Below, one piece after another: positions 4,993 through 5,057 of a stretch of DNA of 40,520 nucleotides. The position numbers and the translations under genes are program-made. The stretch comes from Escherichia phage phiYIO1-1: the sequence record PP079210. The stretch is one strand, 5' to 3'. The notes under the pieces were generated by a model. The model did no database searches. It saw only the letters and a program-made list of their open reading frames with translations, and was not told the origin of the DNA. How positions within the stretch are numbered: the first letter of the stretch is position 1; each line of letters begins with the position of its first letter.

Positions 4993-5015
4993 CCTAAACT
5001 ATCACTATAGGATTA
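4993..5015 (+). promoter_or_regulatory. Phage RNAP promoter (phi1.1-equivalent)
   Basis: CTAAACTATCACTATAGGATTAG at 4993-5015. Confidence 0.8.
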
Positions 5016-5057
5016 GACTCAAGGTCATGACTCAAAGTCGTGGCCTTCATGATTAAC
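5013..5057 (+). promoter_or_regulatory. RNase III-site-like structured motif (R1.1-equivalent)
   Basis: TTAGACTCAAGGTCATGACTCAAAGTCGTGGCCTTCATGATTAACC; the same motif (AGACTCAAGGTCAT...GTGGCCTT(C)ATGATTA) recurs at 12362 and 36481, at the positions where T7 carries R1.1, R4.7 and R18.5. Confidence 0.55.

Follow-up and report, generated by a model that had tools for sequence, protein, structure and literature searches.

Genome context and the three intergenic elements

The window referred to throughout is the whole 40,520-nt stretch of Escherichia phage phiYIO1-1 (record PP079210). Judged from its sequence it is a Kayfunavirus genome (K1F-like, T7 family, Studiervirinae): the T7 gene order is kept across it, and a 10-kb stretch has matches in 319 deposited phage genomes, the best being Kayfunavirus K1F-like coliphages at 92–96% identity. 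The genes that serve as landmarks are the following:

808-1152: ocr (gene 0.3) homolog (Pfam ocr)
2009-4690: RNA polymerase gene
5087-5266: gene 1.1 (Pfam Phage_1_1)
10461-12161: primase/helicase gene
12849-15032: DNA polymerase gene (gene 5)
36214-36477: gene 18 (Pfam DNA_Packaging_2)

The phage promoter AACTATCACTATAGGA has 11 consensus matches in the window compared to 0.33 expected, with the + strand used in all 11. The following one adjoins an element described below:

4997-5012, + strand: phage RNA polymerase promoter AACTATCACTATAGGA, +1 at about G5010, abutting or overlapping the 5' foot of copy 1

A motif made of two fixed flanks and a variable spacer, AGACTCAAGGTCAT-N-GTGGCCTTYATGATTA, has exactly three matches in the window, on the + strand only (5015-5055, 12364-12402 and 36483-36518), and none in shuffles of the window; the 14-mer of the motif taken alone likewise gives three exact matches. 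A previous reading of the sequence alone had pointed out these three copies correctly, but it placed their starts (5013, 12362 and 36481) 2 nt too far upstream; the motif begins at 5015, 12364 and 36483, and sharing is limited to TAGACTC, read from 5014, 12363 and 36482. The spacer, for which 9–13 nt had been claimed, counts 11, 9 and 6 nt in copies 1, 2 and 3 respectively. The gene map agrees with the same reading in placing each copy in an intergenic gap: copy 1 lies after the phage promoter and before gene 1.1, copy 2 has the gene 4 cluster upstream and an HNH ORF followed by gene 5 downstream, and copy 3 extends from the stop codon of gene 18, which its 5' foot overlaps, and lies upstream of 18.5. 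All three are on the transcribed strand and syntenic with the RNase III sites R1.1, R4.7 and R18.5 of T7 and T3, so that the proposed correspondence with these T7 sites is borne out by the gene order of both phages.

Looser matches to AGACTCAAGGTCAT (up to three mismatches, both strands of the whole window) number 23 compared to 4.4 expected, many of them within genes and on the - strand; this excess may be a codon-usage effect, which lies outside what dinucleotide shuffles model. Near-matches at 355, 1934 and 2399 were rejected as sites, as the GGCCUU partner is absent.

In the + strand fold of each copy, a lower stem of 9 bp is separated by an asymmetric internal loop (ACUC on the 5' side, YAUGA on the 3' side) from an upper stem of 9–12 bp (12, 10 and 9 bp in copies 1, 2 and 3), which a variable loop caps. 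The parts are located as follows:

5008-5061, + strand: copy 1, assigned as R1.1 ortholog on the exact motif, fold, covariance model, alignment and gene 1.1 downstream
5008-5016 / 5053-5061: copy 1 lower stem
5017-5020 / 5048-5052: copy 1 internal loop, ACUC / CAUGA
5021-5028 / 5040-5047: copy 1 upper stem, with 4 bp more up to a CAA loop
12357-12408, + strand: copy 2, assigned as R4.7 ortholog on the exact motif, fold, covariance model, relatives and covariation
12357-12365 / 12400-12408: copy 2 lower stem
12366-12369 / 12395-12399: copy 2 internal loop, ACUC / UAUGA
36476-36524, + strand: copy 3, assigned as R18.5 ortholog on the exact motif, fold, covariance model and orthologs in close relatives
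36476-36484 / 36516-36524: copy 3 lower stem
36485-36488 / 36511-36515: copy 3 internal loop, ACUC / UAUGA

The minimal 49–53 nt of the three copies fold at -18.3 to -19.5 kcal/mol (z -3.4 to -5.2), and the individual values are -18.3 to -20.2 kcal/mol (z -3.4 to -4.1) for copy 1, -19.4 kcal/mol (z -3.7) for copy 2 and -19.5 kcal/mol (z -5.2) for copy 3, whose 9-bp upper stem carries a GUCA loop. Both the MFE and the centroid structure show the two helices with the asymmetric internal loop in every copy. The - strand folds worse (-10 to -16 kcal/mol, compared to -18 to -19.5 kcal/mol for the + strand), the conserved G-U pairs becoming A-C mismatches there. Lower stems differ between copies with compensation: GGAUUAG/UUAACCC, GGUCUAG/UUAGACU and GUGUUAG/UUAACAC in copies 1, 2 and 3. 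The folding that the sequence-only reading had proposed as a check therefore returned two helices and an internal loop, the same architecture as in the T7 sites. Its description of a structure-defined site with conserved flanks and a varying loop applies to the apex, which does vary, but not to the remainder, since the internal loop and the eight adjoining upper-stem pairs are conserved in sequence and it is the lower stem that varies.

Homology to the T7 and T3 sites and covariation among relatives

The T7 sequence carries ACTCAAGGTCATTCGCAAGAGTGGCCTTTATGATTG at R1.1, CCTCAAGGTCGCCAAAGTGGTGGCCTTCATGAATA at R4.7 and ACTCAAGGCCACTACAGATAGTGGTCTTTATGGATG at R18.5, and the three copies align column for column with T7 R0.3, R0.5, R1, R1.1, R1.3, R4.7 and R18.5. 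The core ACUCAAGGUC...GGCCUUYAUGAUU is common to the T7 sites and the window copies, which share with the mapped T7 sites the internal loop and the proximal-box helix; strand and placement with respect to genes 1.1, 5 and 18/18.5 agree as well, and phi1.1A is followed by R1.1 in T7 as the promoter is followed by copy 1. The eight loop-adjacent upper-stem pairs of T7 R1.1 are identical in the three copies, and copy 2 has all 10, its upper stem of 10 bp being the same in sequence as that of T7 R1.1. The homology to T7 RNase III sites suggested by the sequence-only reading is thus sustained by flanks identical or nearly so to those of T7 R1.1 and R0.5, and also by the covariance model and the lower-stem covariation described below. 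On the other hand, the lower stems and apical loops differ from those of T7 through compensatory changes, the T7 paralogs are less alike among themselves than the three copies of the window, and in T7 phi4.7 and gene 4.7 come next after R4.7, whereas the R4.7-type site of the window precedes an HNH gene. In the alignment of T7 and window sites, 92.9% of the cells pair under the two-helix model compared to 26–47% with slid partners, changes on both sides are seen in 9 of the 17 pairs, and none of 500 shuffles came up to this.

A covariance model (model R1) was trained on ten T7 and window sequences with T3 excluded. It scores the T7 sites at 45–68 bits and also finds R6.5, which was outside the training set; the window copies, at 57.7 bits (E 7e-12) for copy 1, 66 bits for copy 2 and 63.7 bits for copy 3, fall within the T7 range. 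In the T3 record AJ318471 ten stem-loops carry the label 'RNase III recognition site', and a search of T3 (filters off, E<=1) gave eight matches, every one of them at an annotated site and with no extras, so that eight of the ten were recovered (R0.3, R0.5, R1, R1.1, R1.3, R4.7, R6.5 and R18.5). The two that were missed, R3.8 and R13, are promoter-embedded and of a different architecture. As in the window, T3 R4.7 stands directly before gene 5, R18.5 overlaps the end of gene 18 and phi1.1 overlaps R1.1, and copy 1 aligns with the annotated T3 R1.1 as it does with T7 R1.1; unlike T3 with its ten annotated sites, the window holds five of the R1.1 class and two promoter-associated candidates. The T7 GenBank and RefSeq records contain no RNase III features, and a search of the whole window against Rfam at gathering thresholds gave no matches because there is no curated family for T7-type RNase III sites.

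Related viral contigs were surveyed at 235 loci, around the RNA polymerase (80), terminase (80) and DNA polymerase (75) genes, where the model matched 219, 23 and 54 times respectively and on the transcribed strand every time. The R4.7-type site occurs upstream of gene 5 once per locus in 54 of the 75 DNA polymerase loci. Close relatives and a few others carry the R18.5-type site, which is missing from distant environmental T7-like contigs (50–60% terminase identity), and the family therefore appears to be confined to the enterobacterial T7 group. Compensatory substitutions are found among the relatives: 93–96% of the cells in their alignments are paired, the covariation score is 0.43–0.49 compared to 0.16–0.20 in shuffled and 0.03–0.14 in slid alignments, and 7–9 of the 9 lower-stem pairs have substitutions in both partners, with the internal loop remaining ACUC/YAUGA. 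Taken with the alignment of T7 and window sites, the scores span 0.43–0.50 compared to 0.16–0.23 in shuffles (0 of 500). Three of the four covariation alignments were fitted to the model, and for that reason these counts lean toward its structure, although the hand-made alignment of T7 and window sites agrees with them. In 106 distinct sequences the internal loop is near invariant (A/C/U/C on the 5' side, Y/A/U/G/A on the 3' side), which indicates an element defined by sequence and structure together.

In K1F, orthologous sites lie at 5564, 12851 and 36444, and further ones in the early region at 705, 1028 and 1764; its R18.5 site differs in a longer apex and in AUGG in place of AUGA, and neither of the endonuclease ORFs found behind copies 2 and 3 in the window is present. 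The 81-nt region of copy 2 is 100% identical in phage phiHAO1-1, and a BLAST search with it returned 356 phage records, including T7 at about 1434-1473, the position of R0.5. No RNase III site is annotated in the GenBank and RefSeq records of K1F or in the records of CR44b and EcoDS1, and full-text searches pairing Kayfunavirus or K1F with RNase III found nothing relevant.

Predicted RNase III processing and other readings of the hairpins

The three elements are very probably host RNase III processing sites in polycistronic mRNAs, orthologous to R1.1, R4.7 and R18.5 of T7 and T3. RNase III sites of T7 are textbook material, R1.1 RNA is the standard substrate of the Nicholson laboratory, and the gp0.7 kinase of T7 stimulates RNase III; an obvious gp0.7 kinase is missing from the K1F-group genome, which counts against the reading. 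T7 transcripts are nearly all polycistronic and are processed at RNase III sites (PMC6938266). A single phosphodiester is cleaved in R1.1 RNA (PMC4858673), and internal loops limit cleavage to one bond, the resulting 3' hairpin protecting the upstream RNA from 3'-to-5' exonucleases (PMC1540722).

From the computed homology, fold, strand, synteny and covariation we infer cleavage, its exact position and an effect on mRNA stability and translation. The + strand transcript would form a roughly two-turn, coaxially stacked hairpin that E. coli RNase III would bind and, because of the internal loop, cut in one strand only, on the 3' side of that loop (...CCUUYAU/GAUUA...). The upstream mRNA would then end in the upper-stem hairpin and be shielded from 3'-to-5' exonucleases, and the downstream mRNA would start a few nucleotides ahead of the ribosome-binding site of the next gene. 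The predicted cuts fall between U5050 and G5051, U12397 and G12398, and U36513 and G36514, the first of these being placed by alignment to a T7 cut said to lie at 5887/5888. The T7 cut coordinates, reportedly given by Dunn and Studier in 1983 as 5887, 13892, 36856 and others, fall for seven sites at the equivalent place of the motif, six of them at YAU/G and R1.3 at AGU/C; the coordinate used for T7 R0.7 has no hairpin and was dropped. The promoter +1 (about G5010) sits 2 nt inside the lower stem of copy 1, as is also the case for phi1.1A/R1.1 of T7 and phi1.1/R1.1 of T3, and the site would thus be carried both by transcripts from the adjoining promoter and by read-through from upstream.

It is quite improbable that the hairpins are instead stability or translation elements independent of RNase III, acting as exonuclease barriers or by occlusion of ribosome-binding sites. 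Such a role would suit copy 2, whose stem can extend over the downstream Shine-Dalgarno (the MFE fold of 12350-12420 has an extra 5-bp helix that pairs GGAGG with the upstream CUUCU), and copy 3, where the Shine-Dalgarno of the following ORF begins 3 nt past the lower stem. However, the Shine-Dalgarno pairing was found at copy 2 alone and the next start codon after copy 1 is about 25 nt away, and a plain barrier needs no conserved asymmetric ACUC/YAUGA loop of the kind shared with experimentally cleaved T7 sites. A stand-alone role of this type is compatible with RNase III cleavage, to which it could possibly be an additional function.

Less probable again is that the elements act as DNA, either as palindromes for binding or recombination or as targets or insertion points for homing endonuclease genes. 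The unusually long identical flanks of the three copies are in keeping with it, and so are the endonuclease ORFs immediately 3' of copies 2 and 3 (HNH, 12424-12858; Endonuclease VII-like, 36534-36809), which are absent there in K1F; against it, the model matches one strand throughout the 235 related loci, the compensatory changes keep RNA pairing, the other strand has A-C in place of the G-U pairs and folds much worse, and copy 1 and most of the orthologs have no endonuclease gene nearby. The least credible reading, that the elements terminate or pause transcription by the host or the phage RNA polymerase, has in its favor the stable hairpins between genes, but it fails because none of the three has the T-run that directly follows the GC-rich stem of a Rho-independent terminator, the terminator scan is blank at the three places and the essential downstream genes (5 and 19) require read-through. 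A classical terminator with GC-rich stem and T-run does exist elsewhere in the window (about 22243-22285), and a sigma-70 scan at the three places gave nothing.

RNase III processing is thus retained as the preferred reading. T7 also grows in hosts without RNase III (cited in PMC6938266), and the benefit of the sites would therefore be modest or conditional.

Further candidate sites, inserted genes and annotation

The exact motif counts three copies, to which the covariance model adds two diverged members with the same two-helix form; the next match in the window has E of about 1. Two hairpins of another, promoter-associated class are candidates only:

726-792, + strand: R0.3-like member, 26.4 bits, E 6e-4, fold -22.9 kcal/mol
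1293-1353, + strand: R0.5-like member, 36.7 bits, E 1.5e-6, fold -27.7 kcal/mol
10214-10250, + strand: candidate R3.8-like element with its hairpin at 10214-10241, starting inside promoter 10202-10217, fold -18.2 kcal/mol, z -2.5
25332-25382, + strand: candidate R13-like hairpin, arms 25332-25343 / 25371-25382, fold -23.2 kcal/mol, z -3.0

The first element lies directly upstream of the ocr homolog and has a diverged loop (ACUAC / GACUGA), with a K1F ortholog at 705-771; the second is an early-region element flanked by the 0.3 cluster and ORF 1454-1651, with a K1F ortholog at 1764-1824. Their early-region positions, that of the first just upstream of ocr, are the reason for assigning them to R0.3 and R0.5. 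The R3.8-like hairpin aligns with T7 R3.8 and with K1F, resembles the annotated R3.8 of T3 and is followed by CCCTTTGTTCGCATT, which it has in common with T7 R3.8. The arms of the R13-like hairpin enclose promoter 25353-25368, and T3 R13 (annotated, spanning phi13) and R6.5 of T3 and T7 are built in the same way.

Equivalents of R1, R1.3 and R6.5 were not detected in the window. An R1-like site upstream of gene 1 (1937-1990) was rejected as a weak, irregular hairpin (consensus -4.2 kcal/mol, one compensatory pair), as was an R6.5-like site near promoter 17125, whose fold is no better than shuffles (z -0.1). The region 1921-2008 contains a perfect phage promoter directly upstream of the RNA polymerase gene, followed by an AAGAC/AAGGAC-rich stretch, GGACTCAAGGTCTAAGACTCCAAGTGAAAGACCAAAGAGACTTTAAGTGAAAGAC, whose opening 12 nt resemble the RNase III motif in its 5' half, the GGCCTT partner being absent. 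Other structured places were also observed. Right after promoter 20945-20960, the transcript has a possible 5' stem-loop at 20955-20995 (UAGGGAGACC...GGUUUCCCUA), similar to the stem-loop in the leader of T7 gene 10. A long hairpin of high predicted stability (-37.2 kcal/mol over 80 nt) occupies 39977-40045, close to the right genome end and shortly after the last phage promoter (39958-39973).

The gaps 3' of copies 2 and 3 hold inserted genes. The HNH endonuclease ORF (Pfam HNH_3, E 2e-17) stands between the R4.7-type hairpin and gene 5; homology with K1F extends from the hairpin across the Shine-Dalgarno to the ATG and two initial codons of K1F gene 5 (ATGTTTGA) and then gives way to the HNH insert, behind which gene 5 starts anew at 12849 under a Shine-Dalgarno of its own. 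From this sequence comparison the endonuclease gene appears to have taken over the translation start of gene 5. In CR44b the genes are arranged likewise, and the record calls the inserted one '7.7B homing endonuclease'. The 91-aa Endonuclease VII-type ORF (Pfam Endonuclease_7, E 4e-17) is inserted just past the lower stem of the R18.5-type site, where it takes the place of a K1F spacer of about 40 nt; from the gene 18.5 Shine-Dalgarno onward the two genomes are again homologous. Relatives differ in how they fill the slot between the R4.7-type site and gene 5 (633-1505 in locus L168, 1109-1510 in L220 and L180, 1078-1485 in L188 and others): most Kayfunavirus have only a 12-nt gap there and no gene, and other relatives have an HNH gene, a 290-aa ORF or, in the T7 group, gene 4.7. 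Sequence motifs in the 290-aa ORF suggest a cytosine-5 DNA methyltransferase.

A speculative and rather unlikely generalization would be that mobile or accessory genes of T7-family phages preferentially insert into the gap just 3' of an RNase III hairpin. If so, cleavage would leave an inserted gene first on a processed mRNA of its own, and the protective hairpin would stay with the message upstream; the filling of the slot is explained equally by the scarcity of non-coding gaps open to insertion.

Regarding existing annotation, the K1F RefSeq record NC_007636 lists gp4.4 (12743-12892), a short ORF running across the R4.7-type hairpin, with a 50-aa GTG ORF as its equivalent in the window (12247-12399); an ORF of this type is probably not a gene. 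The kind of site described here is already known, with orthologs in hundreds of deposited genomes, and no concept is changed by it. Its value is in annotation, given that K1F-like records list promoters but omit processing sites. The five to seven sites of the window would define mature mRNA ends and so help the interpretation of transcriptomes, and in the engineering of K1F-type therapeutic phages insertion points could be chosen that leave the 3' hairpins intact.
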